A DNA stretch of 64,000 bases from NCBI GenBank assembly GCA_964463985.1, contig CAYXEK010000007.1, positions 3,404-67,403 of the forward strand, written 5' to 3'. Source of the stretch: an uncultured Verrucomicrobiota bacterium. GTDB taxonomy: Bacteria; Verrucomicrobiota; Kiritimatiellia; JAAZAB01. A program made the position numbers and the translations under genes. Shown in pieces: positions 30,781-56,156 of the stretch. The stretch's first letter is position 1. Every line of letters starts with the position of its first letter. A model generated the notes under the pieces. That model saw only the letters and a program-made list of their open reading frames with translations, searched no databases and was not told the origin of the DNA.

Positions 30781-33019
30781 CTCGAAACTCATCCAGGACA
30801 GGTTGCGCCGCGCCAATGCGGATCCGCTGCGGCGGGGACGGCTGGATCCGCATCGCGGGATTGTTTTGGACCAGGCGGCCACCCCGGCGGAGCACGAAAT
30901 AGCGCTTGCCGGCCGCTGGCGCGTGGAATGCCGCGGTCTTGACCGGGATGCCGCGGCGGCGCTGACCGATGATTTCAGCGATTTTCTGCGGCGGATGCAG
31001 GTGGCGGTAACGGACAGCGCGGAGCAGGCGGTGGTATTCCATCTGGACCCCGGCCTGAATCCGCGCGATTGCCGGCATGAATGCCGGCCGGGATTGATCG
31101 CCATAGAAGGCGGCGGCACTTCCGGCCTCTGGGCCGGCGCGGCCTGGGCGGAGTGGGAAATGCGCCGCCGGCATGCCGCCATCATGCCGGCGGGCCGGAT
31201 CGAACGGCGGGCCTTGTGGAACGAGCAGATCAGCCAGGGGCCCTGGGGCGGAAATTTCTCGGTGCCGGATTTTTCCCCGGAGTTTCTCGCCGACGATGGA
31301 TTCCGCTTGTATGCCCATTATGGTGTAAACAGCATGATGATTTACGGAGATTTGCTGTTTTACGCCAACACCCGGATTTTGCCGGAGCTGAATTGCCCGG
31401 ATTACGAAAGGAACATCGCCATGCTCCGCGATGCCGCGCGGCGGGCCGCCCGTTACGGCGTCGGCTTCGCTTACCTGCCGGTCGGCCCCAAGTTGCGCGG
31501 CGATCATCCCGTTTTCAAAAACCATCCGGAAACCCGCGGCACCAGCCTGCATGACAGGGACATATATTGCCTTTGCTCTTCCAACCGGCTGGTGCTGGAT
31601 TTTTACGCGGAAATATTCGCCAACCTGGCGCGCGAAGTGCCGGAATTGCACGGATTCATACTGATCGTCGGCGGCGAAAGTTTCTACCATTGCCGCATGT
31701 GGGTGAATGTCAAACATCCCTGCCCCGTTTGTTACCGGCGCGATCCGGAGGAAATGCTGGCGGGACTGATCGCGCCGATTTGCCAGGCCGTGAAAGCCGC
31801 GCGGCCGCAAACTTACGTGGCGGTCTGGCAGTATAATCCGACTCCTTGCATGCGGCAACAGGGCTTGGATCTGATTTCCCGGCTGCCGGCGGAGGCGGCG
31901 GTATTCCACCAGATTGACAAAGGGGCAACGCTGCACAAGGCCGGTTACAGCAAAAAAATCTGGGATTACAGCATAGACTTCAACGGCATCGCGGAATTGA
32001 CCGCTGAATACGCAGCGGCGGCGCGGCGCCACGGCCATCCGTTTTTCGTTAAAACTGAAACCGGCACCGGCCTGGAACTGATCCAGTTTCCCGGCGTGCC
32101 GGCCATGCAAAGGCTGGCAGACAAGTGGCTGAACGTGCGCGCCCTGCAACCGGCCGGCGTGCATCAGGCCTGGATTTTCTTCGGCATGTGCGGCACGCGC
32201 GCGGAAATGCTGGGTCTTTGGGCGGCATACCGGCCGGACCTGCCCCGCGATAAATTCCTGGAACAACTCGCCGCCCGCGATTTCGGCGCGGAATCCGTCG
32301 CGCCGGTAATGCAGGCCTGGTCGTCAATGAGCCAGGCCATGGGTCATTTGCCGGCCATCCCGGCCTATTACGCCGGACCCGGTTTTCTGGGACCGGCGCA
32401 TCCGCTGGCGCCGCGGTCAGACGCAAAAATCCCGGATGTGTTTTACGCCAATCTTTACTATCTCATGGAAGGCGATGAAACCTTTTCCGGCAAGCAGTTG
32501 GGCGCCAGCGCACGGGTGTGCCTGGCGATGAACCGGCTGGAACGGCGTTTCTTCCCCGGGCTTGCGCTCGATGATCCAGCGGCTGATTTATGGGCCGTAT
32601 TGGAAGCCGAATACTACGCCGCCGCGGATGCCGGACGGCGGGCATGGGAATTGCTCCGGGCGGCCGGGGAGCAGGCGCGCCTGCCGGCGGCGCGCCTGAA
32701 TCTGGCCGGGGAAACCAACCTGACCGAGCTGGTATACCGTTCCATTTTGTCCTGCGGCAACACCATCGCGTTTCTGCGCCGGCGCGCGGAGTTTGAAGCG
32801 GGCGGCGCGGCGGCGCTGGCGGAAATGAACCGCATTGCCGCCGATGAAAAAGCCAACGCGCTGGCCGCCATACCCATCTATCGGAAGGAACCATGGCTGG
32901 ACCTGGCCTTGCGCCTGGATGGGATATTCAGCCGCTGCGAGGACATGATCGCCGAAAAAGTGCGCTGGATAGACGAATGGCAGGCAAGCATATCCGGCGC
33001 CGGACGGCGGCAACCTTGA
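30773..33019 (+). CDS. Hypothetical protein, 748 aa, possible glycoside-hydrolase-like TIM barrel
   Basis: Long ORF overlapping the previous stop by 8 nt (operon). No motif I can name with confidence. Confidence 0.65.
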   Translation: MFNSKLIQDRLRRANADPLRRGRLDPHRGIVLDQAATPAEHEIALAGRWRVECRGLDRDAAAALTDDFSDFLRRMQVAVTDSAEQAVVFHLDPGLNPRDCRHECRPGLIAIEGGGTSGLWAGAAWAEWEMRRRHAAIMPAGRIERRALWNEQISQGPWGGNFSVPDFSPEFLADDGFRLYAHYGVNSMMIYGDLLFYANTRILPELNCPDYERNIAMLRDAARRAARYGVGFAYLPVGPKLRGDHPVFKNHPETRGTSLHDRDIYCLCSSNRLVLDFYAEIFANLAREVPELHGFILIVGGESFYHCRMWVNVKHPCPVCYRRDPEEMLAGLIAPICQAVKAARPQTYVAVWQYNPTPCMRQQGLDLISRLPAEAAVFHQIDKGATLHKAGYSKKIWDYSIDFNGIAELTAEYAAAARRHGHPFFVKTETGTGLELIQFPGVPAMQRLADKWLNVRALQPAGVHQAWIFFGMCGTRAEMLGLWAAYRPDLPRDKFLEQLAARDFGAESVAPVMQAWSSMSQAMGHLPAIPAYYAGPGFLGPAHPLAPRSDAKIPDVFYANLYYLMEGDETFSGKQLGASARVCLAMNRLERRFFPGLALDDPAADLWAVLEAEYYAAADAGRRAWELLRAAGEQARLPAARLNLAGETNLTELVYRSILSCGNTIAFLRRRAEFEAGGAAALAEMNRIAADEKANALAAIPIYRKEPWLDLALRLDGIFSRCEDMIAEKVRWIDEWQASISGAGRRQP

Positions 33020-34249: not shown

Positions 34250-35590
34250 TTAACGCCCGCAACAATGCTTGTATTTGCGGCCGCTGCCGCAGGGGCATGG
34301 CGCATTCCTGCCCAACGGAGGGCGGACGGCATTCGCCGCCGGACCGGCGCTGATCGCCGCGGCCAGACGCCGCAGTTCCGGCACGGCATGCCGGAAAAAA
34401 ACGCGCCAGCCCTCGCACAGGCGGCTGAGTTCCCCGCCGCCCGGACCGCGGTGTTTGGGGCAATCGCCCGCGCAGAATTCCAGCCAGGGGCAGGCGGCGC
34501 AGGCCGCCGCCCAGCGCTGTTTGCGCCGACCGAATTCGGCATAAAGCGGAGATTGCCGGAGTTGCGCCCAGGAAACCCCGGCTATGTTGCCCAACCGCCA
34601 ACGCTGATCCACGAAAAAATCGCAGGGATACACGTCGCCGTTATGTTCAACCAGAAAGTATTGCCGGCAATCGTTTTCCATGGAACACATGCCGGCCGGC
34701 TGGCGCAAAATGCGGGCCAGGATCGAATCAAACAGGCGGATCGAGACCCGGCCGGCATCCGGCCGCCAGCAATCAAACAACTCGCACAGGAAATCGCCCC
34801 ACTCCCCGCCGGCAATGGCAAACGGCTGCCGGCCGCCCTGCGCGTCATATTCGACGCAGGGGATGAATTGCTGAAAATTAAATCCCTGTCCGCATAAATA
34901 CCGGTATACCTCGGATGCCCGGCGGACATTGGCGGCCGTAACCAGAGTGAGAATATTGAACTCCGCGCGCCGGCGGCGCAAGCAGGCGATTCCGCGCATC
35001 ACCGCGGCATGCGAACCGGATGCCGGATCCGCGCCGTGGCGGTAACGGTCGTGGATAGCAGGCGGCCCATCCAGGCTGACGCCCACCAGGAAACGGTAAC
35101 TGGCCAGGTGGCCGGCAAACTCATCGTCCAACAGCGTGCCGTTGGTCTGCAACCCATTGGAAACCACCGCGCCGGCGCGGCCGTATTGCTGTTGCAGGCG
35201 CGTCACTTCCCGGAAAAAATCCACGCCCATCAGCGTGGGTTCCCCGCCCTGCCAGCCGAAAACATGCTGGGCCATGTCCAGGGCCATGTACCCTGAAATC
35301 AACCTTTCCAGCGTCGTCCGGCTCATGCGCGGCGCCGCCGCATCCGGGTACAAAGCGGCGCGGCTCCGGTAGAAGCAATACTCGCATTGCAGATTACAGT
35401 CCGCGCCCACCGGTTTGATCAGCAGGGAAAATGACGTATTCGCCGGCGCGGCGGGCGCCGGTTTGTCAACCGCCTCCAGCGGTCCGGGTGATTGACAATT
35501 CACGGTGTTCAGTGTTAGGGGTTCATCCACCGTTGCAAAATACGCCTGGCCGGTTAAAACCGTCAAGCAATTTATGGCAAATCCTTGCAA
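34250..35590 (-). CDS. Anaerobic sulfatase-maturating enzyme (radical SAM/SPASM) with C-terminal SEC-C zinc motif
   Basis: CNLQCEYCFY radical-SAM cluster, SPASM Cys clusters (CxxCxxxxxC...C), terminal PCPCGSGRKYKHCCG. The N-terminal ~50 aa before FSLLIKP may not be translated (possible GTG start). Confidence 0.9.
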   Translation of the reverse strand: MQGFAINCLTVLTGQAYFATVDEPLTLNTVNCQSPGPLEAVDKPAPAAPANTSFSLLIKPVGADCNLQCEYCFYRSRAALYPDAAAPRMSRTTLERLISGYMALDMAQHVFGWQGGEPTLMGVDFFREVTRLQQQYGRAGAVVSNGLQTNGTLLDDEFAGHLASYRFLVGVSLDGPPAIHDRYRHGADPASGSHAAVMRGIACLRRRRAEFNILTLVTAANVRRASEVYRYLCGQGFNFQQFIPCVEYDAQGGRQPFAIAGGEWGDFLCELFDCWRPDAGRVSIRLFDSILARILRQPAGMCSMENDCRQYFLVEHNGDVYPCDFFVDQRWRLGNIAGVSWAQLRQSPLYAEFGRRKQRWAAACAACPWLEFCAGDCPKHRGPGGGELSRLCEGWRVFFRHAVPELRRLAAAISAGPAANAVRPPLGRNAPCPCGSGRKYKHCCGR

Positions 35591-37640: not shown

Positions 37641-37705
37641 CGGAATCAGCCATGCCTGATCCATCATGGCATAATTATTGCTTTTAAAGCTGTTTAAGGA
37701 TTAAT

Positions 37706-37746
37706 TTGCCTTTTACAGACATGCGGTTTATAATATTTTCATTATG
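37706..37746 (+). promoter_or_regulatory. Putative promoter of the pseudopilin operon; near-leaderless start
   Basis: TTGCCT (37706-37711), 17 nt spacer, TATAAT (37729-37734). ATG at 37744 only ~10 nt downstream and no Shine-Dalgarno. Confidence 0.35.
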
Positions 37747-38166
37747 AAGAAAGGTTTTACGCTGGTGGAAGTGGTAATAGCTTCAGCATTGCTGGCAATC
37801 ACTATCGGAGCTTTGTTGACGGCCGTCATGACGGCGCGCCGGTCGGCGCTGGTGTCGGGCACGCGGCTGGCGGCCATGCAGGTGGCGCGCGAGCAGATGG
37901 AGACGTTGTTGAATTATCCGTTCAGCGCCGCTACGCAGTTGAGTTGGGGCGTGCATGCAATACCGCCGGTGACGCAATTGATTTACGGATCGCATGCCTC
38001 CGCCACGGGGGTGTTTTACGGTAATTATGTCGTTTCAAGCAATGCGCAATTTTCGCCGGTACTGGTTAAAAACATCAGCCTGACGATTTTCTGGACGAAT
38101 GCCGGCACGCGCTTTTCCTCCAGCGTCAACCTGCAGGGATCCATCAGCAGGCCCTTGCACCCATGA
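37744..38166 (+). CDS. Prepilin-type N-terminal cleavage/methylation domain protein (T2SS GspH/I-like minor pseudopilin)
   Basis: MKKGFTLVEVVIASALLAITIGALL: class-III signal (G-F-T-L-V-E) plus hydrophobic helix. Confidence 0.8.
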   Translation: MKKGFTLVEVVIASALLAITIGALLTAVMTARRSALVSGTRLAAMQVAREQMETLLNYPFSAATQLSWGVHAIPPVTQLIYGSHASATGVFYGNYVVSSNAQFSPVLVKNISLTIFWTNAGTRFSSSVNLQGSISRPLHP

Positions 38167-38798
38167 TCAATTTCAAACATTTAGCGGGCGGGGCCGGACG
38201 GGGCCGGATCGCGCCAGGGCGTTGCGCCGGCGCGCGGGGTTTTACCATGGTGGAATTGATCGTTGCCGCGGGCATTTTCAGCCTGGTGTCGGCCGCCGTC
38301 ATCAGTATTTACCTGGTATGCCAAAGGGTCTGGCAAACCACTACCATGAATATTCACGCCGCGCGCGAAGTGAGCCTGGCTTTGAATAAGATAGTTTACG
38401 GGACTGGCACCAATCCCGGCATGCGCGCCGCCATCCGCGTTACGCTGCAAACCAATTGCAGCGGCTGGCGCACCGGCGCCGGTTATCCGCTGGCGGCCAA
38501 CAGCACCTCGCATGGAGTCAATGCGGGGGGCACGCCGGACGGCAGCTGGCGGATGATCGTCTTGAACACCAACGGCCTCCAGTGGATTGATTACAACGCC
38601 AAGGCCAGCAACCTGGTTTTCTGGCCCATCACCAATGCCGTCAACAGCCGGCTGCCGCTCGGCAATTATATAGCCGGCGCGCAAGTCGCAACCAACCCGG
38701 GCGGCGTGAACATCAGCCTTGCGGCCCGGCGCCGGCATGGGCGGATCAGCGCCGTCTACACGGCTTCAACTTTCGTGAATTTGCGCAATCAAAATTAA
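38163..38798 (+). CDS. Prepilin-type protein (GspJ-like minor pseudopilin)
   Basis: ...ARGFTMVELIVAAGIFSLVSAAV... ATGA overlap with the upstream gene. Confidence 0.75.
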   Translation: MINFKHLAGGAGRGRIAPGRCAGARGFTMVELIVAAGIFSLVSAAVISIYLVCQRVWQTTTMNIHAAREVSLALNKIVYGTGTNPGMRAAIRVTLQTNCSGWRTGAGYPLAANSTSHGVNAGGTPDGSWRMIVLNTNGLQWIDYNAKASNLVFWPITNAVNSRLPLGNYIAGAQVATNPGGVNISLAARRRHGRISAVYTASTFVNLRNQN

Positions 38799-38806
38799 AA
38801 GCACGC

Positions 38807-40492
38807 GTGTTACATGGAATGAATTCTCCATCTCAAAATTCCGGAGCGGTTTTGGTGGCGGTAGTCAGTTTTACCGCGTTGGCCGCCATTCTGGCCGCCA
38901 GCATGCTGACCGACGGCATTACGCAAATCAGCCTGGCCCGGCGCCAGGTCGCTATGGAACAGGCCTTCTACCTGGCGGAAGGCGGCGCGGAACAGGCCGT
39001 GGCCTACATCCGCAACGGCCAATCGGTGCCCGGCGTCGTTACAGGAGAATTCGTTTTCCCCAACAATGCCACCGGCAAATTCACCGCGGTGATCGTCCAG
39101 GCATTCAATACCGCCGGCGGAGGCTCAACCGGGACCAACTCCCTGGCCGGCAGCATCAACATCAATCCCAACAATTCTTCCCAGAACGAGTTCCTGCTGG
39201 TCAAGCCCGACGGCACCACCATCACCCGCGACGACCTGCAGGGCGACACCACGGTTTACACCAGCGCGCCCTGCGTGTATTACACTGGTCCGGCGGTGAT
39301 GATCCGGGTCAAACCCAAAGGCAACGGCAACCAGAACACTTTTATCGTCAACGGCGCTGTCTATCCCCTGATCAACGCCAACACTTATGACCTGGTGTCC
39401 CTGAATATGCAGGTCCAAGTGTACAACGACGGACGCAACCAGGGTAACGGGCGAGCCAACGGACAGTGGTGGCTCGGCAGCATCGCCGGCAACGATGCGA
39501 CGATCGGTGAGCAATCCGCCGCCGGCGCCGGCCCGGTCGCGCGCCAATTCACGATCTTTTCCACCGGCCGGATCGGCAGCGCCCACCGGGCAGTGATCCT
39601 GGAAGGCGTGCAGCAACAGGCCTGGTCCCGCTTCGCGTTATGGTACAACAACTCCGCGGGCCCGATCTGGATCGGCGCCGGCGAGGTTTTCAACGGGCCG
39701 GTCCACGCCAACACCATGATCTACCTCGACGGCAACCCGATCTTCAACGATTTGTTGTCTTCCACCGCGGCCTGGTGGGGGCCCGGCAGCGATTTATCCC
39801 AGGTGCAGTTCAACGGCGGCACCTGGCTGAACGCGCCGGCCGACACCATGGCCACCGTGGTGTTCAGCAACCTGCTGGCAGACGCGACGCTGACAGTCAC
39901 CGGCCAGACCTACATGACCATGGCCGGCACGAACATCTTCATCACCAACACCCGGAGGGGCTGGAACAATTACCGCCTCGCCGCGCCTTCCAACGGCCTG
40001 CTTTACGTGGACACCGCCAATTACGGGGCGGGCAAAAACGGCATCATCTATCTCGGAGGGGAACTGGACGGCCGCCTGACGGTCGTGGCGGAAGACAGCA
40101 TCCGGATCACCAATCATCTGACTTACGCGGTCCACCCGACCAACGGCTCGGACGACGCCCTGGGGCTGATAGCCCAAAATGACGTCGAGGTCCGCAATAA
40201 CGCGCCGGCCAACCTGAATGTTTTCGCGCACATCATCGCCTGCAACACCGACAACAGCACGTATGAAAGCGGGTTCTTCGTTCAGGATTACAGCACCCGT
40301 TACGGCTGCGGTTTCCTGAACGTCTATGGCGGCATTGTGGAAAACAACCGCGGCGCGGTCGGCACCACCTCCGGCAGGGGGTACACCAAGAATTACACAT
40401 ACGACGAGCGGTTCCGCACCGCGCCGCCGCCCCATTATCCGACGGTGCTGGATATCTATCAATGGGACAATTGGAGGGAAAAAGCGTTATGA
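38807..40492 (+). CDS. GspK/PilX-like large minor pilin (561 aa)
   Basis: N-terminus SGAVLVAVVSFTALAAILAASML...ARRQVAMEQAFYLAEGGAE resembles the PilX_N/GspK N-domain (no Glu5). Large Gly/Asn-rich body. Confidence 0.7.
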   Translation: MLHGMNSPSQNSGAVLVAVVSFTALAAILAASMLTDGITQISLARRQVAMEQAFYLAEGGAEQAVAYIRNGQSVPGVVTGEFVFPNNATGKFTAVIVQAFNTAGGGSTGTNSLAGSININPNNSSQNEFLLVKPDGTTITRDDLQGDTTVYTSAPCVYYTGPAVMIRVKPKGNGNQNTFIVNGAVYPLINANTYDLVSLNMQVQVYNDGRNQGNGRANGQWWLGSIAGNDATIGEQSAAGAGPVARQFTIFSTGRIGSAHRAVILEGVQQQAWSRFALWYNNSAGPIWIGAGEVFNGPVHANTMIYLDGNPIFNDLLSSTAAWWGPGSDLSQVQFNGGTWLNAPADTMATVVFSNLLADATLTVTGQTYMTMAGTNIFITNTRRGWNNYRLAAPSNGLLYVDTANYGAGKNGIIYLGGELDGRLTVVAEDSIRITNHLTYAVHPTNGSDDALGLIAQNDVEVRNNAPANLNVFAHIIACNTDNSTYESGFFVQDYSTRYGCGFLNVYGGIVENNRGAVGTTSGRGYTKNYTYDERFRTAPPPHYPTVLDIYQWDNWREKAL

Positions 40493-40869
40493 ACGGCGCA
40501 TTCAACGGCCGCCAACCGGACGCTCCCGCGCCGCTGATGATTATCGCGGCCGCGGTTTTGATCGCGGCAGGGGTGGGCGCGTCGGTCTGGACCTTGTGGC
40601 ATACCTTGCGCGCTCCTCCCGGCGCGGCGCCGGAAGCGCTGGCGGCGGCTAAGCCGGCGCCTGCCATGCCCGCCGCGGTACCCGCCCAAGCCGCGGCCCC
40701 GGCGCGGGGCGGCGAATTCACCACCGATTTTGAGCAGATGCGTCAGCGCGCACAAACCGCGCGGACGACGGCGGAAGTGCTGCGCCGCGCCAGGCGGGCC
40801 AACGCCAATTCCGCCTGGACCGAGGAAATGATCAAGGCCGTGGAACGCGGGGATGTAGCCATCCGCTGA
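40489..40869 (+). CDS. Small single-pass membrane protein (127 aa), hypothetical
   Basis: ATGA overlap with the previous stop. One TM (LMIIAAAVLIAAGVGASVW), Ala/Pro-rich linker, charged helical C-terminus. Could be a GspM/PilO-like accessory protein (inference). Confidence 0.5.
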   Translation: MNGAFNGRQPDAPAPLMIIAAAVLIAAGVGASVWTLWHTLRAPPGAAPEALAAAKPAPAMPAAVPAQAAAPARGGEFTTDFEQMRQRAQTARTTAEVLRRARRANANSAWTEEMIKAVERGDVAIR

Positions 40870-40908
40870 CGATAGGTCAGGCCGCGCGCCACAACGAACG
40901 GAAATATT

Positions 40909-41319
40909 ATGCCCGCCAAAGCGACAAGCGGATTCACCCTGGTGGAAATGATGGTAGCCGGAACGCTTTTTTTACTGTTCTGCGCGGGATTCTTCTCCGC
41001 CTACCTCGCGGCCATGGGCACGCAAAAAATGGCGGCGAATCATTATCGCGCGCTCTGCCTCGCCCGCAACCGCATTCAGCATGCGCGCGCCACGGAATAC
41101 TCCAGCCTGGAATTGCTGGCGGAATCTTCCAACGCCATTGACGCCTTCGGCAATCCCGACACGGCCGGCGGTTTTCAACGCACCACGACCATTATCCCGG
41201 CAACCAATACTCCGGCGAAGATTTCAGAATTTACCGTCCAGGTATGGTACCCGGCGCACCGCGGGCGTTTAAGCGCCGCGCCGGTGGAACAATCCACCCT
41301 GATCTCCGATCCGATGTAA
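40909..41319 (+). CDS. Prepilin-type protein (GspH/I-like)
   Basis: MPAKATSGFTLVEMMVAGTLFLLFCAGFF class-III signal. Confidence 0.8.
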   Translation: MPAKATSGFTLVEMMVAGTLFLLFCAGFFSAYLAAMGTQKMAANHYRALCLARNRIQHARATEYSSLELLAESSNAIDAFGNPDTAGGFQRTTTIIPATNTPAKISEFTVQVWYPAHRGRLSAAPVEQSTLISDPM

Positions 41320-41327
41320 GTCAAAAC

Positions 41328-43403
41328 ATGCCATTCTACCCGTCATTCATACGCAGCGGCCGGCGCGCCGGTTTCACCGCGGTGGAACTGATCATCAGCG
41401 CTTCCATCATGGCGCTGGTCATGACCGGCGCCATCGCCACTTTTGTTTACGGACTGCGCACCTGGCGCAATGAAACCATCACCAGCGAATTGCACCAGGA
41501 CCTGGAAAAAGCGATGGAACATATCCGCAACGATTTGCGGCTTTCCAGCGTGGGCGTGGGCCTGATGTCATTTTACCCTACCAATGCCGCCGAATACACC
41601 GCCATCAGTTTCCCGCTTTCCTCTCCCGCCGGCGACAACCTTTTGCGGCGGGATTTGAACACCAACAGCCCGAACTACGGACGCATCATCTGGGATCAAA
41701 CCGTGATTTACCACGTACGGCCCGGACAGCCCGATGAATTGCTGCGGACCTTATTCACGCCGCGGAACAGCAACGCCGCGCCGCATGATTTCTACACCCA
41801 ATTGCGCGCAGTGGCGCTCAGCACCGATCTCGCCGGCGTGCAGGCCGCCGCCATGGCGGGTGAAAATGCCACCAGCCGGGTGATTTTTCAGAACCTGGTA
41901 AGCATGCGCATCCGGCCGCCGGAATTGCTGTTTGACGGCTATGCCGCCTCCTACCAGCGCGCGCGCAATCTTAACTGGGGCAGCGTGGTGCTGGGCGACG
42001 GCATCAACGACCTGACCTTTACCGTAGTGGGCAAAAACACCGACAGCGCCGGCTACAAGATGGGTATTGACTGGTTTTCGCTCAGCCCCAGCGCCAGCCG
42101 GCGCGAGGGCGAGATTTTCCTGCCGGCCGATTCTCATCCGGTTTCGCCTTTCTACCGGGCCATCCTGTCCGGCGGGACGGTTTCCGCCCAGGATATGTCC
42201 CCGCACGGCGCCGGCTGGAGCGGCAACTGCCAGTTGACCTTCGACGCCGGCGCCATCGGCAACGCTATCACCTTCAAGGCCCATAACGATCTCTGGTGCG
42301 ATTCGCAGTTTGACACCCCGCCGGGCGTCATTGCCAGCAATGTCAGCCGCAAATGCGACACCAATTTCATTGCGCAGCCCCCCTATATCCCCGATTATGT
42401 CATGGACATGGACAAAGGCATAACCTGGACCGCGGAGAACGCCACGGATGGCGCGATCGGCGCCATTACGCTGACGAATGACGTCCCTGTGATCAACATC
42501 ATCTATGGCGGCAGCAGCAATGCGCCAGGCAACATCATCTACAACGGCGCCCGGGCATGCCTGAATTTCCAGGCGCCCACCAACGGCCAGCTTTTCATTG
42601 ACAACGTGAAAATCATGCAGCAATTGTCCGGCACCAATCCTGTGGCCGGCACCGTTCAGAACGTGACCTTTGCCGGCAGTTCCTGGCGCAAGGTCGGCGC
42701 GGGCGGCGAGGCTTGGAGCGATTGGATCGACTTTCCGTTCGACCGCAACGTTTCCTGCCTGGTATCTTTTCAGCTAAAAACGGACAACTTGATCCTTGCC
42801 AACGCCAGGACATGGTTGTCCACCGCCACCAACCCGCCCATGTCGTATTTGAACAATATGCCGCATAACCAGTTGATCGGTCTGGGTGCGATCGCGGTAT
42901 TGTATCCCTCCAACGCCGTCTACCTTTCCGGGATTTTTGACACCCGGCTGGCCAATCCTTCCTATCGCCTCCTTAACTGGACCCAGGTGGAGCCCTGGCC
43001 TTATGGCGACATTGACATCCGCGTGCGGTCCGGCGACCAGCGTGACTTAAGCGACGCCTGCGCATGGGATTTCTACGGCGTCAATAACGATCACAATAAC
43101 ATCGTTGGCATTTCGGGCGGTCGTTACGTTCAATACGAGGTTTTATACAACACCATCCAACCGCATACGTTAAACGCCAAACTGCGGGACGTCACAATCA
43201 GTTGGGCCGGATCCACGGGGTTGGTGGATTTAGTGGTCGGATTCGCCCGCGGGCCGGATTACGGGATCGTCAAAGCCGAAGTCAACGGACAAGCTTTCAT
43301 CAAGGGAATCGAGGTGGAAATGGAAATTTTCAAAGCCGGACCTTTCGGCACCAACCGCGTATCCGGCCTGATGGAAGTGCGGCCTTTGAATACGGGGAAA
43401 TAG
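41328..43403 (+). CDS. Giant prepilin-type protein (691 aa; GspJ-like N-terminus plus ~600-aa extra domain)
   Basis: Start ATG 41328 immediately after the upstream stop. RRAGFTAVELIISASIMALVMTGAIATF signal and helix. Remainder has no recognisable domain, possibly a lectin/adhesin beta-rich module. Confidence 0.75.
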   Translation: MPFYPSFIRSGRRAGFTAVELIISASIMALVMTGAIATFVYGLRTWRNETITSELHQDLEKAMEHIRNDLRLSSVGVGLMSFYPTNAAEYTAISFPLSSPAGDNLLRRDLNTNSPNYGRIIWDQTVIYHVRPGQPDELLRTLFTPRNSNAAPHDFYTQLRAVALSTDLAGVQAAAMAGENATSRVIFQNLVSMRIRPPELLFDGYAASYQRARNLNWGSVVLGDGINDLTFTVVGKNTDSAGYKMGIDWFSLSPSASRREGEIFLPADSHPVSPFYRAILSGGTVSAQDMSPHGAGWSGNCQLTFDAGAIGNAITFKAHNDLWCDSQFDTPPGVIASNVSRKCDTNFIAQPPYIPDYVMDMDKGITWTAENATDGAIGAITLTNDVPVINIIYGGSSNAPGNIIYNGARACLNFQAPTNGQLFIDNVKIMQQLSGTNPVAGTVQNVTFAGSSWRKVGAGGEAWSDWIDFPFDRNVSCLVSFQLKTDNLILANARTWLSTATNPPMSYLNNMPHNQLIGLGAIAVLYPSNAVYLSGIFDTRLANPSYRLLNWTQVEPWPYGDIDIRVRSGDQRDLSDACAWDFYGVNNDHNNIVGISGGRYVQYEVLYNTIQPHTLNAKLRDVTISWAGSTGLVDLVVGFARGPDYGIVKAEVNGQAFIKGIEVEMEIFKAGPFGTNRVSGLMEVRPLNTGK

Positions 43404-43422
43404 ATGTCAGAAAGGAACAGCC

Positions 43423-44523
43423 ATGTCAAATAACACTTTGCGGCGCAACCGCGCCGGCCGCCGCGGCTCGGCGCTGGTGACGGTCATGTGCGTATCGGCG
43501 GTGCTGCTGCTGGCCAGCATGGTGATGGCTTACATCACCCGGCAGTCGGTGGCGCGAGCCCAGCGGATCAACACCGGCGCGCGGGCCCTAGCCGTCGCGG
43601 AAGCCGGCATTGCGGGCATGATCTCGCTGCTGAGCACCAATTACAACATGTGGCGGAACACCAACCACAGCGCCCAGTTTGGCGGCGGCTACTTTACCGT
43701 CAACAGCCTGACGCAATCCAACGGCAACGTGCTGCTGGTCAGCACCGGCGTGGTTGGCAGCGTGGCGCGCTCAACGATCATGGAACTGCTCGGCACTTAC
43801 CAGGACTGGAATGATTCGCTGTTTCAACTGGACGGCGTCATCCTGGCCGGCGGCGATGTGCGTTTTTCATCGGCCGCCTACGAAATCAACGGCAATGTGC
43901 ATGCCAACGGCAGCGTGATCGCCAACGGCGGCGCGAAAAACGGTGACTTCATCAGCAATGCGGTCATCACGGCTGTAGGCTCGGTCGCCGATTTGAACAA
44001 TGTTGACGCCACCAACGAAATCTCCGGCGCGCCCTTGCGGGTGCTGCCGACGTTCGATTTCGACAGCTACCGGCAACTGGCCATTTCCAACGGTTTGTAT
44101 TACAGCAATTCCATGACTTTCAACGGCTGGAATGCCTGGCCGTCCAACGGGGTGGTCTATGTCAATGGCGATGTGGTGATCGCCAATCACAGTTCTCTGG
44201 TGGGCACGCTCGTGGCCAACGGCAACATCCAGGTGCAGAATAATTTCACTCAGACCAATTTTCCGGGACAAACCAACTGGCCTTCCGTGATGAGCACCGG
44301 CAACGTCACGCTGCAAAACAAAGAGGATTATTACGGCATCATTTATGCCGCTTTGAATGTCAGCATCCAGAACAACATCACCTGCTATGGCGGCATTATC
44401 AGCGGCGGTTACACCGAGATTCAGAACCACGGCACCATGAACCAGCCGCCCGGCTACCCACCCTGGGACCCGCTCAATCCCTCCGTACCCCCGGAAGTCA
44501 TCGTCGGCGGCTGGCTGAAGTAA
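43423..44523 (+). CDS. GspK/PilX-like minor pilin (366 aa) with beta-solenoid-like Asn/Gly repeats
   Basis: RRGSALVTVMCVSAVLLLASMVMAYITRQSVARAQRINTGARALAVAEAG N-domain. Repeated NGNVxANGSVIANGG units. Confidence 0.7.
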   Translation: MSNNTLRRNRAGRRGSALVTVMCVSAVLLLASMVMAYITRQSVARAQRINTGARALAVAEAGIAGMISLLSTNYNMWRNTNHSAQFGGGYFTVNSLTQSNGNVLLVSTGVVGSVARSTIMELLGTYQDWNDSLFQLDGVILAGGDVRFSSAAYEINGNVHANGSVIANGGAKNGDFISNAVITAVGSVADLNNVDATNEISGAPLRVLPTFDFDSYRQLAISNGLYYSNSMTFNGWNAWPSNGVVYVNGDVVIANHSSLVGTLVANGNIQVQNNFTQTNFPGQTNWPSVMSTGNVTLQNKEDYYGIIYAALNVSIQNNITCYGGIISGGYTEIQNHGTMNQPPGYPPWDPLNPSVPPEVIVGGWLK

Positions 44524-44773
44524 GCGCAAGCCGGCTTTGCCGCAGCAGCGTCAGCGCTTTGCGCCCGCGCGCCGGCGGTTGGCATTGATCGGCAAGATAG
44601 AGGCATCTTCCGTTGGCGCATGCCGTTACGCGACAGTTTGACGCAGAGCGCCGGTCGGCCATATTACGTGTAAAATTCATGCGGAGTGGTTGCGGGAAAA
44701 TTGCTCTTGTGCTAGTATTCTTTTTTTGACGCGCTTCAGGCGCGGCATGCACGGCATCCGCCAAGGAGTCAAC

Positions 44774-45790
44774 ATGAGCCGACAAATCGCCCGCGACGCC
44801 ATCAATCTCAAACCCACGCCGCGCATCGCCCATACGGAATATTCGCTGGCGCATCACAAGGAATACGTTGCCAGGCTCCAGCCGCAATCCATCCTGGACG
44901 CCTGGGATATTGACTTCCCGTTCACCACCAATAACGGCCCCATCCGCTGGGCGGACGCCGGACGCGTCACCGACATGGGCCATGCCGGCTATGACGTGGA
45001 CGGCAGCGATTTCCGGCCGGTGGGCGATTGCCCGTTTACCGACGCGGAAGAGATTTACGAGTTCGATCCGGCGCGGGAATACGGTCTGCCCGGACACCGC
45101 GAACTGGTAAAATTTTATGAGGAGGCGCACCAGGCCCGCAACGCGTCGAATCCCAACCAACTCTGGCCGGGCGGTTATTATCCGACGGTCGTTTCCGGCG
45201 CCATTCAATCATTCGGCTGGGATATGCTGCTGCTGGCCGCCGCCGACCTGGAGCGCTTCGCCGAAGTCCTGCGCCGGTTTGCCGCCTATACCGCGCATTA
45301 CGTCGCCGCCTGGGCGGAAACTTCCATCGAGGTGTTCATCCAACACGACGACATGGTCTGGAGCGACGGGCCGTTCCTGCGCCCCGATTTTTACCGCGGC
45401 GTGATCTTCCCGCTGTACAAATCCATGTGGGCGCCGCTGAAAAAAGCCGGCAAGAAAATCATGTACTGCTCCGACGGCACCTTCGACATGTTCATGGAAG
45501 ACATCCTGGACTGCGGGGCCGACGGCCTGATTTTCGAGCCATCCAATGACTTCGCCGGGGTGGTCCGGCGTTTCGGCCGCCGCTGCTGCCTGGTGGGCAG
45601 CAAGGTGGATTGCCGCACCCTGGCCGCGGGCAACTGGGACAAGGTCAAGCAGGAAATGGACGATACCCTGGCGCTGGCCCGCGATTGCGCGGGACTGATC
45701 TGGGCGGTGGGCAACCACCTGGCGCCCAACATTTCCGATGAAATGATGGACCTGTACATCAACTACCTGCGCCGGCACTGGCAGCGCTGA
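44774..45790 (+). CDS. Uroporphyrinogen decarboxylase (URO-D/MtaA) family protein, paralog 2
   Basis: ATG 44774 with AAGGAG Shine-Dalgarno. TIM-barrel family features (KKIMYCSDGTFDMFMEDILDCGADGLIFEP). Confidence 0.8.
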   Translation: MSRQIARDAINLKPTPRIAHTEYSLAHHKEYVARLQPQSILDAWDIDFPFTTNNGPIRWADAGRVTDMGHAGYDVDGSDFRPVGDCPFTDAEEIYEFDPAREYGLPGHRELVKFYEEAHQARNASNPNQLWPGGYYPTVVSGAIQSFGWDMLLLAAADLERFAEVLRRFAAYTAHYVAAWAETSIEVFIQHDDMVWSDGPFLRPDFYRGVIFPLYKSMWAPLKKAGKKIMYCSDGTFDMFMEDILDCGADGLIFEPSNDFAGVVRRFGRRCCLVGSKVDCRTLAAGNWDKVKQEMDDTLALARDCAGLIWAVGNHLAPNISDEMMDLYINYLRRHWQR

Positions 45791-47373: not shown

Positions 47374-49812
47374 TTATTCGCGGATGCCGGCACGGATGCC
47401 CAGCACGGCGCGCAGGCCGGCTTGATGCGCATAGGGTCCGGCATCGCCGAATGGCGCCAGGCTGAAAATATCGGCGGGATTCTGCGTCGGCGCAGCCAGC
47501 AGGTAGCTGTAACGATATTCGCCCGCCCCGGCGGCGATCGCGGCCAGGTTCTTGATGTCATCGGCAACCGCGTCGGATACCGGCGGCGCCGCGGCGCCTG
47601 TCCGAAGCTTGTATAATTGCATCCCCAGACCGCCGAGTTCAACTTCGCCGCTGCGCGGCCGGTAAAAAGAGTCCGTCCCGCCGGCGCCGGCCAGGGCCGG
47701 CAAATGTTTCTGGAACACATCTTCCCAGGCCGCGGATCGAGGAATCCATGCCTCGCGGCCGCCGCCGCCATTGCGCACAATGGAAACCACATCGCGGGAC
47801 CAGTGCCAGGCGATGGCCATGCCCCAGCGCGGATCGTCGAAAAAGCGCGGCCGGTCAGGCTGTTCCGGCTGTTGTTCCATCGCCAAGGTCAAAGCCGCCC
47901 CCAGGAAATCATTCAGCAGGGCGTCGCCGCAATCGGTGTTGCCGGTGGCATAGGCCAGCGCCAGGAGCAGCATGTAGCGGCCGGTCCAATCAAAAAAACC
48001 TTCCGGATCGCCCTGTTCCAGGCAAACCGTCCGGGCCGCCAGCCATTCCTGGAACGCCGTCTCCGCCCAGGCGGGCGCAGCCCTTCCGGACGCTGGCAGG
48101 CAGACGGCGGCGAACTCTTCTGCGCGGTCCGCCGAGGCCACCCCCAGACTGTAATAAAGAATCATTAACCGGCGAAAGCGTTCTGCGTCCCGCACCTGCG
48201 CCGCCCGCCAACGCGCGGCGTCCCATGCCCGCCGCACGCGCCGCAGGCTGTCGGCCAGCCGGCGGCGTTCCTGCTCGGAAAACCGGATGATCTCCGTTTC
48301 CAGCCGGCGCCGGCCGACTTCCAACCCGGGGCGCACAAACGCCACGCGGATTTTATCCAGTTCGCCGGTTTCCTCGCTCGGCAACAACTCGCCCGCCGCG
48401 CCGGCAAAAACGATTTCCTCCGGATCATCGCCCCCGGGCAGCGGGCGGACAATCCGCCAGATCAGCATCAGACGCACCGCCATTCTGGGAGGAGGCTCAG
48501 GCTGGCCTTCCGGCGCCGGCTCGGACGGTCTCAAGGTACAGGTCAACGCGATTTCGGGCTGGGAGCCGGCGCCCGGCGGCGCGGCGGCAAGCCAGTCGCA
48601 TAAACGCGCCGCGGGCGGGACAGCCGCAGAGTCGCCCGGAGTCAGCATCGCCTCCAGTTCCCGCTCAAGCTCGCGCAGGCGGGCATTGCGTGCGTTTTCC
48701 TCCGGCAGGGCGGCGGCGTCCAGGGCCGCCTTGCGCCAGGCGGCGAATTCATGGCGGTAGGTCCAGACAAAGCCGAAGATGGCCGGCAGAGCGGCGGCGT
48801 CAAAGACAGCCTGTCGAGCCGCATTCGTGGGCGCCACTCTGCGCGCCTGCAAATCATTTTCCATTACCGCCAACATACGCGAACCGGCAATTTCATCCAA
48901 CGCAGCCGTCATGGCCGGTTCCGCCGCACGGCGAGTCCAGAGCGTGGATCCGATTGCCGCCAGCAGCCCGGGATGGGCTATGTTTTTCAAGGCAAACGTC
49001 CAGAGTTGATTGCGGGCGGCTGGGAAATCGGGCAACAGCCGCCGCAACTCGAAAGGCGCCGCGGCAATTTCCAATACCGGCGCCCCCAACGCCAGGGCCG
49101 TCTTGTCCGGGGAACTCACCAGGCCGGCGCGGCCCATGGCAGCGGCCAGACGGCTGTGCAAAGCCTCATCTGCCGGATCTGCGGAAGCCAGGGCGCCGGG
49201 CAATTCCGGGTCGGCATTAAACACCAGGGCTGCCAAGCCTGCTTCCGGCAGCCAATCGGGAAGGAGAGCCAGGTTGCTTAACCGGGTGTTGCCCAGGGCG
49301 GCCAGGGCCGCCGCGCCGCGCGCCAGGGGTGAATCGGCGCGCCGGAATCCCTCATGCAACCCCGCATATGCGGCGAAAAAATTATTGTAAAAAAACCAGG
49401 CCGCGGCGCTGATTCCGTCTGACGCCGACTCCAATTCCGCACCGGTCAAAAACCTGCCGGTATCCAAATCCTGGTACACTCGGGCCGTCCACCGCCGCGC
49501 CCGGGGGCGGCCGACGCCCAAGGCTTCGCGCACCGCCGCCTCGTCCACGGAGTAAAGGCCGGCCACGCGCGGCGCGCCCGCTTCCAGCAGCCGGGTGAAA
49601 GCCTTTTGCAGCGCCGCATCGCGTTCGGGATTCATGCTGAAAACCGGGGGGCAGGCGGCGCGCTCCGGCAGCCTGGCCGTAGCGGCGGAATATTCCGCCA
49701 GGCGCGTTAAATCTTCCTCCGTCCGCGGCGACTGCGCCCCCGCGGCCAGCCCCAGCGCCGTAGCCACGCAACCAACCAGAATTTGACCGTGATATTTAAA
49801 TCGCCGATTCAT
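47374..49812 (-). CDS. Hypothetical Ala-rich lipoprotein (812 aa)
   Basis: N-terminal signal with L-V-G-C lipobox (MNRRFKYHGQILVGC). No recognisable domain. Same strand as, and upstream of, the thioredoxin and aldolase genes. Confidence 0.65.
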   Translation of the reverse strand: MNRRFKYHGQILVGCVATALGLAAGAQSPRTEEDLTRLAEYSAATARLPERAACPPVFSMNPERDAALQKAFTRLLEAGAPRVAGLYSVDEAAVREALGVGRPRARRWTARVYQDLDTGRFLTGAELESASDGISAAAWFFYNNFFAAYAGLHEGFRRADSPLARGAAALAALGNTRLSNLALLPDWLPEAGLAALVFNADPELPGALASADPADEALHSRLAAAMGRAGLVSSPDKTALALGAPVLEIAAAPFELRRLLPDFPAARNQLWTFALKNIAHPGLLAAIGSTLWTRRAAEPAMTAALDEIAGSRMLAVMENDLQARRVAPTNAARQAVFDAAALPAIFGFVWTYRHEFAAWRKAALDAAALPEENARNARLRELERELEAMLTPGDSAAVPPAARLCDWLAAAPPGAGSQPEIALTCTLRPSEPAPEGQPEPPPRMAVRLMLIWRIVRPLPGGDDPEEIVFAGAAGELLPSEETGELDKIRVAFVRPGLEVGRRRLETEIIRFSEQERRRLADSLRRVRRAWDAARWRAAQVRDAERFRRLMILYYSLGVASADRAEEFAAVCLPASGRAAPAWAETAFQEWLAARTVCLEQGDPEGFFDWTGRYMLLLALAYATGNTDCGDALLNDFLGAALTLAMEQQPEQPDRPRFFDDPRWGMAIAWHWSRDVVSIVRNGGGGREAWIPRSAAWEDVFQKHLPALAGAGGTDSFYRPRSGEVELGGLGMQLYKLRTGAAAPPVSDAVADDIKNLAAIAAGAGEYRYSYLLAAPTQNPADIFSLAPFGDAGPYAHQAGLRAVLGIRAGIRE

Positions 49813-49858: not shown

Positions 49859-51130
49859 TCATTGGGCGGGCGCCGGGTCGGCTGTGCGCCGGCGGCACAA
49901 ATTGTCCCGGCGATACCGGGCGGGGGTCACCCCGGCCACGCGCTTAAACTGCTTGATGAAATAACTCTGGTCGCAAAACCCCGTGGCATAAGCGATTTCC
50001 GGACATGGCTGGTCGGTCTGCTCCAGCAACTGCATCGCCTGGCGCACCCGGCGCTGGGTCAAGTGCTGCAAAAAAGTCCTGCCGGTGCGCTGCTTCAGCA
50101 GGTGGCTGACATGGAAAACGCTCAAGCCCGCGGCGGCGGCGGTTTCCGCCAACGACAAGTTGCGCTGATAATGCCGGTTGATATGATCCAGCACCCGCAG
50201 CAAGGCCGGATGCCCGACGCCGTGGCTGCGGGAATAGATGCCGTCCATAAACGCGTCTAAAGCCTGCATCAAAACATGCGCCAGAGTTTCAAAGTCGCGC
50301 GCGGCGATTAACTTGCGCATCCATTGGTGGTTTTGCTCAAGGAGCGGCTCCATTTGCGCGTTATCTTCCACCGCCGCCCGCGTCAGGTAGCCCATCATCT
50401 CAATCGCCCGCGCGCGCAGCACCACCAGCTTGGGCGATGAAAGAAACATCACGCCCAGCGTCTCGTTCAGCACGCGGCGGGCGCCATTGCGGTCTCCGGA
50501 TTTAATGAGGGACAATAACAGGCGTTCCTTGTCCACCGGATAATGCGTCGGCGCAACCGCTCCGCGCTTGCGCTGTTCGTCCATGGCCTCGGCAATCTGG
50601 CGCTGCTGCACGGCTTTCCGGCGATTTTCGTCCAACAATTCAGGCTGCCAGCCGCTGATCTGGTAAAAAACTTCTGAAAGCGACCAGGCTGCCGCGCGGA
50701 TGCGCGCCGACGGCCAGAGCCGCAATCGCGCCACATAACGCCGGGCAGCCTCCGGCGCCGCTCCCTGGCGCAGCAAATCACGCAGCGCTTCCTCGTCCGC
50801 CCCTGCATGCGCCAGAACCTCGCCGCCCAGTATTCCGCCCGCCAGTTCCCGGCGGTTCACCAGCGCCACAATCCAACTGATAATGCCGCCGGCGCGGTAA
50901 AACACATACGGTTCGCCCCATTGCAGGGCTTCCTGCAGGCAACAGGCCAGAGCATCGTGATAAGGGGGCAAGCCCGGCAACTGGCCGGCCAAGCGCCCCG
51001 ATAAAAGCGGATGTCCATCCACTCCCACCGGCACCGCATGCAGCCTGAAATTACGATAATAATCCCGGCACACCGCCGCCAAAACGCGCCGCGCCGGGGT
51101 AAAAAGTTGTTTTTTCACAAATCCTCCCAT
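49859..51130 (-). CDS. AraC-family transcriptional regulator
   Basis: C-terminal dual HTH (LSLAETAAAAGLSVFHVSHLLKQRTG...IAYATGFCDQSYFIKQFKRVAGVTPARYRR). Divergent from the corrinoid-protein gene. Confidence 0.85.
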   Translation of the reverse strand: MGGFVKKQLFTPARRVLAAVCRDYYRNFRLHAVPVGVDGHPLLSGRLAGQLPGLPPYHDALACCLQEALQWGEPYVFYRAGGIISWIVALVNRRELAGGILGGEVLAHAGADEEALRDLLRQGAAPEAARRYVARLRLWPSARIRAAAWSLSEVFYQISGWQPELLDENRRKAVQQRQIAEAMDEQRKRGAVAPTHYPVDKERLLLSLIKSGDRNGARRVLNETLGVMFLSSPKLVVLRARAIEMMGYLTRAAVEDNAQMEPLLEQNHQWMRKLIAARDFETLAHVLMQALDAFMDGIYSRSHGVGHPALLRVLDHINRHYQRNLSLAETAAAAGLSVFHVSHLLKQRTGRTFLQHLTQRRVRQAMQLLEQTDQPCPEIAYATGFCDQSYFIKQFKRVAGVTPARYRRDNLCRRRTADPAPAQ

Positions 51131-51348
51131 AAAACAGCAAGATTGTTATAAAAAAAACTGTTTTTGTCTATACCAAATTAACCGGATAAGCTTTAATGCG
51201 CGCCAGTTTGGTTTGTTTGGTTGTCTGACGGAATTGGCGGAAGCGGCCAACCGCCCACCGCCGGGCGGCGAAACTCAATCATAAAATGCGCAATCGCGCA
51301 GTCGGGCAGCCATTGCGGCGCAAAAAAAGCGACAGGAAAGGACAGTAC

Positions 51349-55753: not shown

Positions 55754-55972
55754 GCGGATGGGGATACCCTGTTTTGCGCAGGATGTCAAGGTAGAATTCG
55801 CCCCGCCCCACCCGCGGGGGCGCATCTGCGATTCGTTGCAGGCAAGCAGGCACCGGCAATGCGATTGATTGCTTGCGTACAGTTTTTGGCCGCGCAGCGG
55901 TTTTGGAGTGCGCAGGCTCGACTGCGCTTTTATAGGGTTGCGTTTAACCCGCAAGACCTGAAGCCGTAGCAG

Positions 55973-56099
55973 AAAAGCGGCGTCAAACCGCCGCAGTCCA
56001 AAGCAGCTTTCCTGCGCAAAAGCGGCGTCAAACCGCCGCAGTCCAAAGCAGCTTCGCCGCGCAAGAGCGGCGTCAATCCCTGCGGAACAGACTTGCGCC
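55973..56099. repeat. 45-bp tandem repeat (2 perfect + 1 degenerate unit) containing hairpin gcggcg-tcaaac-cgccgc
   Basis: aaaagcggcgtcaaaccgccgcagtccaaagcagctt at 55973-56009 and 56018-56054 (37/37 identical), separated by 8-nt linkers (tcctgcgc / cgccgcgc). Degenerate third unit at 56063-56099. Intergenic between bioB and the CPA2 gene. Confidence 0.8.
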
Positions 56100-56127
56100 C
56101 GAGCAAGTCTGGCTAAAGTCAACAACC

Positions 56128-56156
56128 TTGACATCCGGCTGCCGGCATTTATAATG
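56128..56156 (+). promoter_or_regulatory. Consensus sigma70 promoter for the CPA2 antiporter gene
   Basis: TTGACA (56128-56133), 16-nt spacer, TATAAT (56150-56155). ATG at 56200. Confidence 0.6.

Follow-up and report, generated by a model that had tools for sequence, protein, structure and literature searches.

Two paralogous I-J-K-like minor-pilin modules in a Kiritimatiellia genome fragment, one with a predicted modular giant pilin

A compact seven-gene cassette

We analyzed a stretch of 64,000 nucleotides from an uncultured bacterium of the class Kiritimatiellia (Verrucomicrobiota; contig CAYXEK010000007.1), referred to here as the window. On its forward strand, at 37744-44523, lies a cassette of seven close-set genes (g1 to g7). 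Their product lengths, 140, 211, 557, 126, 136, 691 and 366 amino acids (aa), were taken from our own open reading frames (ORFs) and from gene calls on an identical public contig (L001; the loci compared below are numbered in the same series). Our best reading of this cassette is that it comprises two minor-pilin modules: module A, with g1 (I-like), g2 (J-like) and g3 (K-like, ComZ-type) together with g4, and module B, with g5 (I-like), g6 (J-like, giant) and g7 (K-like). The genes are as follows, a slash marking the predicted cleavage site.

g1, 37744..38166, + strand: 140-aa prepilin (MKKG/FTLVE); GspI/PilV/ComGE-like small minor pilin, module A
g2, 38163..38798, + strand: 211-aa prepilin with a long leader (...ARG/FTMVE); J/PilW-like minor pilin, module A
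g3, 38819..40492, + strand: 557-aa ComZ-like K-type tip pilin, module A (putative); DUF4900 family
g4, 40489..40869, + strand: 126-aa bitopic protein accompanying module A
g5, 40909..41319, + strand: 136-aa prepilin (SG/FTLVE); I-like minor pilin, module B
g6, 41328..43403, + strand: 691-aa modular J-type pilin (RAG/FTAVE), module B
g7, 43423..44523, + strand: 366-aa K-type tip pilin, module B (putative); shorter paralogue of g3

A first-pass annotation of this DNA, made from the sequence alone, had described seven consecutive, tightly packed genes with two ATGA overlaps. All seven are where it placed them, on the + strand; the overlaps fall at the g1/g2 (38163-38166) and g3/g4 (40489-40492) junctions, and the remaining intergenic gaps are 8-39 nt. 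Its sizes stand except for two: g3 is 557 aa from its ATG and reaches the reported 561 aa only from an upstream GTG, and the single-transmembrane protein g4 has 126 rather than 127 aa. The latter has an N-terminal transmembrane segment followed, after a Pro/Ala linker, by a conserved helical motif of ~55 aa at the C-terminus; it matched no family in Pfam or NCBIfam and had no homologues beyond its synteny partners, and a gene of this kind sits after the g3 homologue in several loci. We found no convincing intrinsic terminator downstream of g7, and no Rfam RNA family was detected in the window.

Prepilin signals

Four of the proteins (g1, g2, g5 and g6) carry a canonical class III prepilin-peptidase signal of the form G/F-T-x-x-E, and a six-frame regular-expression scan of the 64 kb returned exactly four such motifs, all within the cassette. 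These motifs are kept across homologues of the cassette pilins, including those of g1, and in the g5 family G8, T10 and E13 are invariant among 29 homologues. The first-pass annotation had counted six class III signals; the four canonical ones hold, whereas g3 and g7 have an N-terminus of the GspK/PilX type, in which a conserved Gly precedes a hydrophobic helix that lacks the Glu at position 5 (Glu5). This Gly is near-invariant in 57 g3 homologues, and G15 is invariant in 55 homologues of g7.

Searches with the N_methyl, GspK and PilX_N models, which had been proposed along with that count, gave the following matches. Pfam N_methyl exceeded its cut-off for g1 (26.8 bits), g2 (24.6 bits) and g6, and g5 came just under it (19.6 bits against a cut-off of 21.2), with TIGR02532 right at its own cut-off. 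PilX_N matched 23 of the 57 g3-family members, and both g3 and g7 had weak N-terminal matches to GspK in NCBIfam. The best NCBIfam matches of g1 were ComGE, XpsI, GspI and PilV, and that of g5 was likewise ComGE; all of these are N-terminal and below cut-off. Both g1 and g5 have the right size and position for an I-type subunit. The small pilins had been labeled H/I-like; no H-type subunit is present, and g1 and g5 resemble the I type more than the H type. Membership in the curated GspH/I/J/K, PilV, ComG, HpsC and Verru_Chthon C models was rejected, because the matches were sub-threshold and limited to the N-terminus. Sequence searches of the PDB with g3, g6 and g7, and with profiles of six pilin families (g1 and g5 among them), matched pilins at the alpha1 helix only, with the exception of a 38-aa match between g6 and a xanthan-binding module; ComZ, GspJ and GspK were undetectable by sequence in these searches.

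Paralogy of the two modules

Profile-profile comparison with hhalign paired the subunits of module A with those of module B in gene order. The g1 and g5 families aligned over 111 columns (probability 98.8%, E 7.8e-17), g2 aligned with the pilin domain of g6 over alpha1 and the first strands (98.0%, E 2.8e-13), and g3 aligned with g7 over alpha1 and the solenoid described below (96.3%, E 1.9e-9), with g3 residues ~95-245 absent from g7. All three pairs had already been hinted at by pairwise BLASTP. By these comparisons modules A and B are true paralogues, which bears out the earlier description of two tandem I-J-K-like sets. The order I-J-K is also that of gspIJK and pilV-W-X (PMC9934059 and established knowledge).

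Predicted structures of the K-type pilins

The AlphaFold2 (AF2) model of g3 has a predicted local distance difference test score (pLDDT) of 87.1, with a helix at residues 8-65, and shows a GspK-type pilin fold with an inserted beta-sandwich of ~150 aa (residues ~95-245) and an ice-binding-like beta-solenoid. As in ComZ and the cyanobacterial PilX proteins, the GspK-like domain is broken near its C-terminus by a triangular solenoid of this type, and the other traits of a K-type subunit are also present, in that the protein is the largest subunit of its module, lacks Glu5 and has a GspK-like pilin fold. In the models of both g3 and g6, alpha1 helices of 54-58 residues lie on pilin beta-sheets, with structural matches to GspJ, GspK and ComZ, and the pilin domains match pseudopilins of type II secretion systems (T2SS), namely GspJ/XcpW/EpsJ and GspK/XcpX. 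The large proteins had been put forward for structure prediction in the first-pass annotation, and these two monomer models do show the pilin alpha1/beta-sheet fold. No sequence homology between g3 and ComZ was found with phmmer or hmmsearch.

The g3 family corresponds to Pfam DUF4900 (51 of 57 members), and its shorter members, of ~420 aa, are without the beta-sandwich insertion. This insertion (window ~39100-39555) is strongly conserved, with the motifs ININPNNS..NEFLL..PDG..ITRDDL and VKPKG.G.QN; it is present in DUF4900 proteins of ~550 aa and missing from the ~420-aa relatives and from g7. For the insertion itself we obtained no match to a known structure or family.

For g7, sequence comparison supports a K-type pilin with a predicted beta-solenoid and without the g3 insertion. 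The repeat stretch reported earlier in this protein, NGNVHANGSVIANGG, was confirmed, and its description as solenoid-like is backed by homology to g3 and by the ice-binding-like adhesive Pfam matches of its relatives (pAdhesive_15 and Ice_binding); the relatives also match DUF7305 and DUF2572. The solenoid gives no clue to a ligand, because this fold is common to adhesins and ice-binding proteins.

A giant J-type pilin

The AF2 model of g6 (pLDDT 86.4) has an alpha1 helix at residues 18-71, and the remainder is all-beta: a GspJ/XcpW-like pilin domain, in which the helix (~50 residues) lies on an antiparallel beta-sheet, followed by ~500 aa of beta-sandwich modules that resemble carbohydrate-binding modules (CBMs). 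The protein thus has the J-type fold of GspJ, XcpW and PilW and the build of a modular pilin, with carbohydrate-binding-type beta-sandwiches grafted onto a pilin module. Its structural matches include many CBM6/16/36/61, MAM and PHR jelly-rolls, Foldseek agrees, and one stretch of g6 (residues 216-253) resembles the C-terminal end of the xanthan-binding module MiXBM in sequence (E 4.6e-6). The best CBM-like match is an esterase domain, which has been described as an unclassified CBM-like fold that supplies residues for sugar binding solely at an interface between domains (PMC9105624). The predicted fold of g6 is therefore suggestive of carbohydrate binding rather than proof of it, and a glycan-binding role for the protein is plausible.

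The g6 family is large, with 354 representatives of 50%-identity clusters (E<=1e-30), mostly of ~690 aa and aligning end to end, and no Pfam or NCBIfam model covers it beyond the N-terminal motif (N_methyl). A variant of ~970 aa, found in L031-L037 and L040 (proteins P0041-P0078), accommodates an FG-GAP/VCBS beta-propeller at one fixed position (between g6 residues ~483 and ~496), and this propeller recalls those of PilY1 and the integrins. A partial g6 homologue was also seen in a MAG of Victivallis vadensis (L041).

Homologues, synteny and linked machinery

Homologues of the cassette proteins are found nearly exclusively in metagenome-assembled genomes (MAGs) of the Planctomycetes-Verrucomicrobia-Chlamydiae (PVC) group (Kiritimatiellia, Lentisphaerae, Victivallales and 'Verrucomicrobiota'), with one in Omnitrophota. 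A Kiritimatiellia MAG recovered from an anaerobic membrane bioreactor is the closest genome, its g6 being 92% identical. We compared 35 genome loci and several metagenome loci. The g5-g6-g7 trio is a fixed unit, kept in about 30 loci, and it persists at 28-33% identity amid housekeeping genes. Module A lies directly upstream of module B on the same strand in the window and in L007-L009, L011, L012, L020 and L021; downstream and convergent in L010, L013, L014, L017 and L027; and in about 18 loci it is absent within 10 kb. In L005, other small pilin genes come after module A. Module A therefore moves independently of module B.

The recurrent neighbors across the ~40 related loci are mostly housekeeping genes (RNase III, IlvD, XerC and TPR proteins), the TPR proteins recurring beside module B in L023, L031-L033, L036 and L040. 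A PilM-type gene (PF11104, TIGR01175) adjoins module B in three species only (L023, L033 and L036), and a secretin is near it in L033 and L036 only, where the PilQ and GspD models score about equally; genes with weak GspM/PilO-like matches, two in all, stand alongside in L023 and L036. These pilM-like clusters, which hold other small genes as well, at L023:13377-16893, L033:3758-9287 and L036:3577-9011, lie directly beside g5-g6-g7, and in L023 a 1205-aa LamG/TSP3 protein takes the secretin's place. The PilM-type neighbor in these three loci favors a machine like that of type IVa pili (T4aP) over a T2SS. In L042, a small GspG-like pilin is next to the trio, together with one weak T2SSE match. 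Small pilins of the GspG/PilA type (MKKGFTLVEIMIVVAIIGLLAAIAIP...) were seen within 1-10 kb of the modules at L021:2263-2667 (-), L023:12-365 (+) and L042:8640-9152 (-), and are candidate major subunits.

Predicted promoters

Two promoter-like elements precede g1.

Candidate sigma-54 (-24/-12) promoter TGGCATAATTATTGCT, 37667..37682, + strand: 62 nt upstream of the g1 ATG
Sigma-70-like hexamers TTGCCT-17-TATAAT, 37706..37734, + strand: 10/12 consensus matches

The pattern TGGCAY-N5-TTGCW matches only once on the two strands of the 64 kb, at this candidate, with 0.23 expected per window; transcription from it would begin near 37692. In 7 of 11 loci a corresponding element (TGGCAT-N6-TGCT, GG-N10-GC) is found 75-110 nt ahead of the g1 homologue, and in one more it is 346 nt ahead. 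It also precedes the g5 homologues in 13 of the 26 loci in which module B stands alone (>=10/11 matches, with several more at 9/11), where a background of 6.6e-5 per nt predicts about 0.5 chance occurrences; no such element was found upstream of g5 where module B directly follows module A. Since the element precedes g1 homologues and stand-alone g5, each module appears to be a sigma-54 unit of its own, and in the lineage of the window both are joined behind one predicted sigma-54 promoter and are probably co-expressed. A sigma-54-dependent response regulator neighbors the modules in three loci (L021, L025 and L026), which fits the conserved promoters; in L021 (2990-4342, -) it consists of receiver, Sigma54_activat and HTH_8 domains, and the same cluster is found in L025 and L026.

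A sigma-54-like string that recurs on the minus strand inside g7 homologues, TGGCATGCACGTTGCC, was rejected as a promoter, being the antisense of the sequence that encodes the solenoid's conserved NVHAN motif; examples are at L009:12574, L013:12749 and L017:12527, and the string is a source of false positives in promoter scans. The sigma-70-like hexamers, which begin at the coordinate from which the first-pass annotation had started, lie in a region that is not enriched for such matches relative to shuffled sequences (5 found, 3.6 expected). As weak candidates, they would yield an almost leaderless g1 mRNA.

Other features of the window

The remaining window holds housekeeping and glycan-use genes, including GH28, fucosidase-like, heparinase-like, radical-SAM/SPASM maturase, URO-D-like and B12-binding proteins and a Wzt ABC ATPase. 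Three URO-D-like (MtaA/CmuA-type) paralogues occur together with a B12-binding protein, an AraC/PocR-type regulator and a radical-SAM/BATS protein (7927-9069, -; 44690-45790, +; 53604-54686, -; 51286-51987, +; 49859-51130, -; and 54746-56194, -), a set that looks like a corrinoid-dependent methyl-transfer or demethylation system beside the glycan-use genes. The pairing of AraC with a B12-binding protein is seen again in L005, close to the pilin module. At 34250-35590 (-) is a radical-SAM/SPASM protein with a terminal SEC-C-type Cys motif, CPCGSGRKYKHCC; the protein looks like an enzyme of the anaerobic sulfatase-maturase type, and it and the DUF1846 gene are conserved in the close relative L003, where they lie just upstream of the cassette.

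ARAGORN places a tRNA-Ala(GGC) at 11001-11076 (-), within the C-terminal part of a 1118-aa ORF (10705-14061, -) that has only a weak heparinase II/III match, which leaves either the ORF or the tRNA call doubtful. The stretch 14001-20000 has a G+C content of 0.52-0.56, compared with about 0.60-0.66 elsewhere, and holds a GH28/pectate-lyase-like gene, a CN-hydrolase and unannotated ORFs; it could be acquired DNA. Five large ORFs (605-1119 aa) had no Pfam match at E<=0.001: 47374-49812 (-), 60608-63967 (-), 30773-33019 (+), 6003-7820 (-) and 14139-16145 (-).

Discussion

We think it likely that the cassette encodes two paralogous core minor-pilin sets of the I-J-K type, which would prime a type IV filament and cap it, with the genes for the machinery located elsewhere. 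This would be an uncharacterized variant of a known principle, as tip complexes have already been described in Thermus, cyanobacteria and the T2SS. We found nothing relevant in the literature on pili of Kiritimatiellota or Kiritimatiellales, on DUF4900 or on DUF1559.

The closest counterpart in logic is found in cyanobacteria, in which a 'Com' and an 'EPS' set of minor pilins prime two different filaments on one machine, and in which every PilX bears an ice-binding-like beta-solenoid proposed to substitute for the PilY1 plug (preprint 10.64898/2026.02.12.705559). Two paralogous minor-pilin sets per genome are one shared trait. The cyanobacterial sets (PilX, HpsA-D), however, include a FimT/H-type subunit and carry their extra domains on PilX, whereas the cassette, from a different phylum in the PVC group, has no H-type subunit and bears its largest extension on the J subunit of module B; against the HpsC model (NF038304, cut-off 200), this protein reaches 22.7 bits, over the N-terminal helix only. 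In Thermus thermophilus, the competence locus PilA1-PilA2-PilA3-ComZ (PDB 6qvi, 6qvf and 5g23) likewise has small minor pilins before a giant K-type subunit, and ComZ, in which an ice-binding-like solenoid interrupts a GspK-like pilin domain, has been argued to be a tip subunit that binds PilA2 and DNA (PMC6561018). By comparison, the cassette shows no detectable sequence similarity, its set is duplicated, g3 has an extra beta-sandwich of ~150 aa, module B has a giant J subunit as well, and no major pilin is adjacent; DNA binding is known for ComZ.

With the tip of the T2SS pseudopilus (GspI-J-K or XcpV-W-X; PDB 3ci0, 5vtm, 2ret and 3nje), the cassette shares the I-J-K order and a K subunit without Glu5, but here a beta-solenoid replaces the alpha-helical domain of GspK, J is about three times larger, GspH is absent, the linked machinery of relatives has a PilM-type gene, and the GspI/J/K models score far below their cut-offs. 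The T4aP minor pilins FimU-PilV-PilW-PilX-PilY1 of Pseudomonas and Myxococcus form a priming complex that carries the tip adhesin. Their core subunits are encoded apart from the machinery, as here, and Myxococcus has several alternative sets (PMC9934059 and established knowledge). The cassette differs in having neither PilY1 nor FimU/PilE and in fusing its adhesive-type domains into the pilins, although the FG-GAP propeller of the ~970-aa g6 variants is reminiscent of that of PilY1; the PilV model reaches 18 bits against a cut-off of 52. Adhesive modules grafted onto a pilin module within a tip complex are also the concept of Streptococcus sanguinis PilA-PilB-PilC, modular tip pilins whose complex is nucleated by an I-like subunit and of which PilC has a lectin module that binds glycans (PMC9934059). 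That system, however, belongs to a monoderm without a secretin, uses ConA-like lectin and vWA modules, and has no sequence relationship to the cassette and no solenoid K subunit. The Verru_Chthon cassette (TIGR02596-TIGR02600) is another PVC multigene cassette with prepilin N-termini. Protein C of that set matches g1, g2 and g6 weakly (12.4-17.4 bits against a cut-off of 256.5), with no matches to A, B or D, and because the similarity is confined to the N-terminal helix the cassette proteins are not members.

The steps that we infer, among them complex formation, tip location, ligand and machine, would run as follows. A prepilin peptidase encoded elsewhere would cut after the conserved Gly, and each I-J-K trio would then join through its alpha1 helices in the inner membrane to form a quasi-helical cap with the Glu5-less K subunit topmost. 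This cap would prime polymerization of the major pilin by a PilM/secretin-type machine, also encoded elsewhere, and would finish at the filament tip. There the beta-solenoids of g3 and g7 could serve as a bulky tip plug or an adhesive surface, the role proposed for ComZ and cyanobacterial PilX, and the J subunit of module B would display its CBM-like modules as a most likely ligand-binding, probably glycan-binding, head. Two modules would mean two alternative tips and therefore two functional filament types.

Several observations weigh against this reading. In a Pfam search of ~45 ORFs of the window, no ATPase, platform protein, secretin or major pilin of a T2SS or type IV pilus was found, in agreement with the first-pass annotation, nor a peptidase of such a system, and neither module contains an H-type subunit (GspH/FimU) or a fourth pilin, which may be encoded elsewhere. 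The curated equivalog models for GspI/J/K and PilV reach 16-21 bits against cut-offs of 44-130, and the assignment of g1, g2, g5 and g7 draws on paralogy, size, gene order and sub-threshold N-terminal matches. The esterase counterpart of the g6 modules has no proven independent sugar-binding pocket (PMC9105624). With a mass of ~75 kDa, mature g6 is a large subunit to move through a secretin, and its surface display is accordingly not assured. Finally, co-transcription of both modules could mean that they act jointly rather than as alternatives.

The last point leads to a rival explanation, in which the six pilin-like proteins form one composite tip and module B extends module A in the manner of accessory minor pilins. 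The window and its closest relatives pack all seven genes behind a single sigma-54 promoter with none before g5, which speaks for such a tip. In most loci, however, module B stands alone with a sigma-54 promoter of its own, in others module A is on the opposite strand or has other partners (L005, L010, L013 and L017), and two Glu5-less K caps would be hard to fit into a single filament tip, so that we hold this explanation to be improbable. We give somewhat more credence, though still little, to the possibility that module A at least forms the tip of a competence pilus, a short filament for DNA uptake, with g3 as a ComZ-like DNA receptor and module B serving adhesion. ComZ, which binds DNA, belongs to a minor-pilin locus with a comparable gene order (PMC6561018), the two cyanobacterial sets divide competence from motility and adhesion, and ComGE is the best NCBIfam match of both g1 and g5. 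Yet g3 is without sequence similarity to ComZ and the DNA-binding lysines could not be mapped, its solenoid also occurs in adhesins and ice-binding proteins, and it has the additional conserved beta-sandwich that shorter relatives lack; ComEA, ComEC and DprA were not seen near the cassette.

Slightly ahead of competence, although in our judgment also unlikely, is a role in secretion, in which each trio would cap a periplasmic pseudopilus that pushes proteins, among them perhaps the many carbohydrate-active enzymes (CAZymes) of this bacterium, through GspD, with the bulky domains selecting or contacting cargo and not serving adhesion. The structural resemblance of the pilin domains to GspJ/XcpW/EpsJ and GspK/XcpX, the nearly equal scores of the L033 and L036 secretins against GspD and PilQ, a linked gene with weak GspM matches and the abundance of glycan-degrading genes in the window are all compatible with this. 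On the other side, the linked cluster begins with a separate PilM-type gene rather than GspL, which is the T4aP arrangement, and the K solenoid is of the ComZ/cyanobacterial-PilX type and not the alpha-helical insert of GspK (PMC6561018); moreover, no GspC, E, F or L was seen in about 40 loci, and the trios lack an H subunit. By far the least probable explanation is that the proteins are not pilins at all but ordinary Sec-secreted enzymes or adhesins with incidentally hydrophobic N-termini. It could draw on the failure of the N_methyl model to detect g3 and g7 and on the predominance in g3 and g6 of beta-sandwich and solenoid folds common in secreted CAZymes, but it is disfavored by the long alpha1 helices on pilin sheets, with their GspJ, GspK and ComZ matches, and by the conservation of the G/FTxxE motifs across homologues. 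The secreted-enzyme reading is rejected on the pilin-fold models and on the lack of any catalytic family match.

Within the preferred reading of two alternative priming and tip sets, a more specific and more speculative role, to which we assign a modest chance, would make module B the head of a retractile, sigma-54-controlled 'glycan-fishing' pilus, with module A as an alternative ComZ-like cap for a second task. If so, the giant J subunit, with CBM-like modules here or the FG-GAP propeller in sister lineages, would capture polysaccharide or particles, and the adhesin that is separate in model T4aP (PilY1) would be built into the J and K pilins, among them several hundred uncharacterized proteins.

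Minor-pilin tip complexes determine what a filament binds and whether it assembles at all, and so far a small number of proteobacteria, Thermus, cyanobacteria and streptococci have supplied the examples that were solved or tested. The same logic, in which I-J-K trios have a solenoid K subunit as cap and occur as duplicated sets, would now extend to Kiritimatiellia and Lentisphaerae, anaerobic polysaccharide degraders that are hard to culture, with the added variant of a J subunit bearing ~500 aa of CBM-like modules and of sister lineages that swap in a beta-propeller at a fixed site. The conserved predicted sigma-54 promoters offer a direct regulatory handle, and naming the giant J-pilin family would improve the annotation of many PVC genomes, because its 354 representatives are without a model beyond the N-terminal motif. 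If g6 does bind glycans, pili would be linked to substrate capture in glycan degraders of the gut, bioreactors and sediments.

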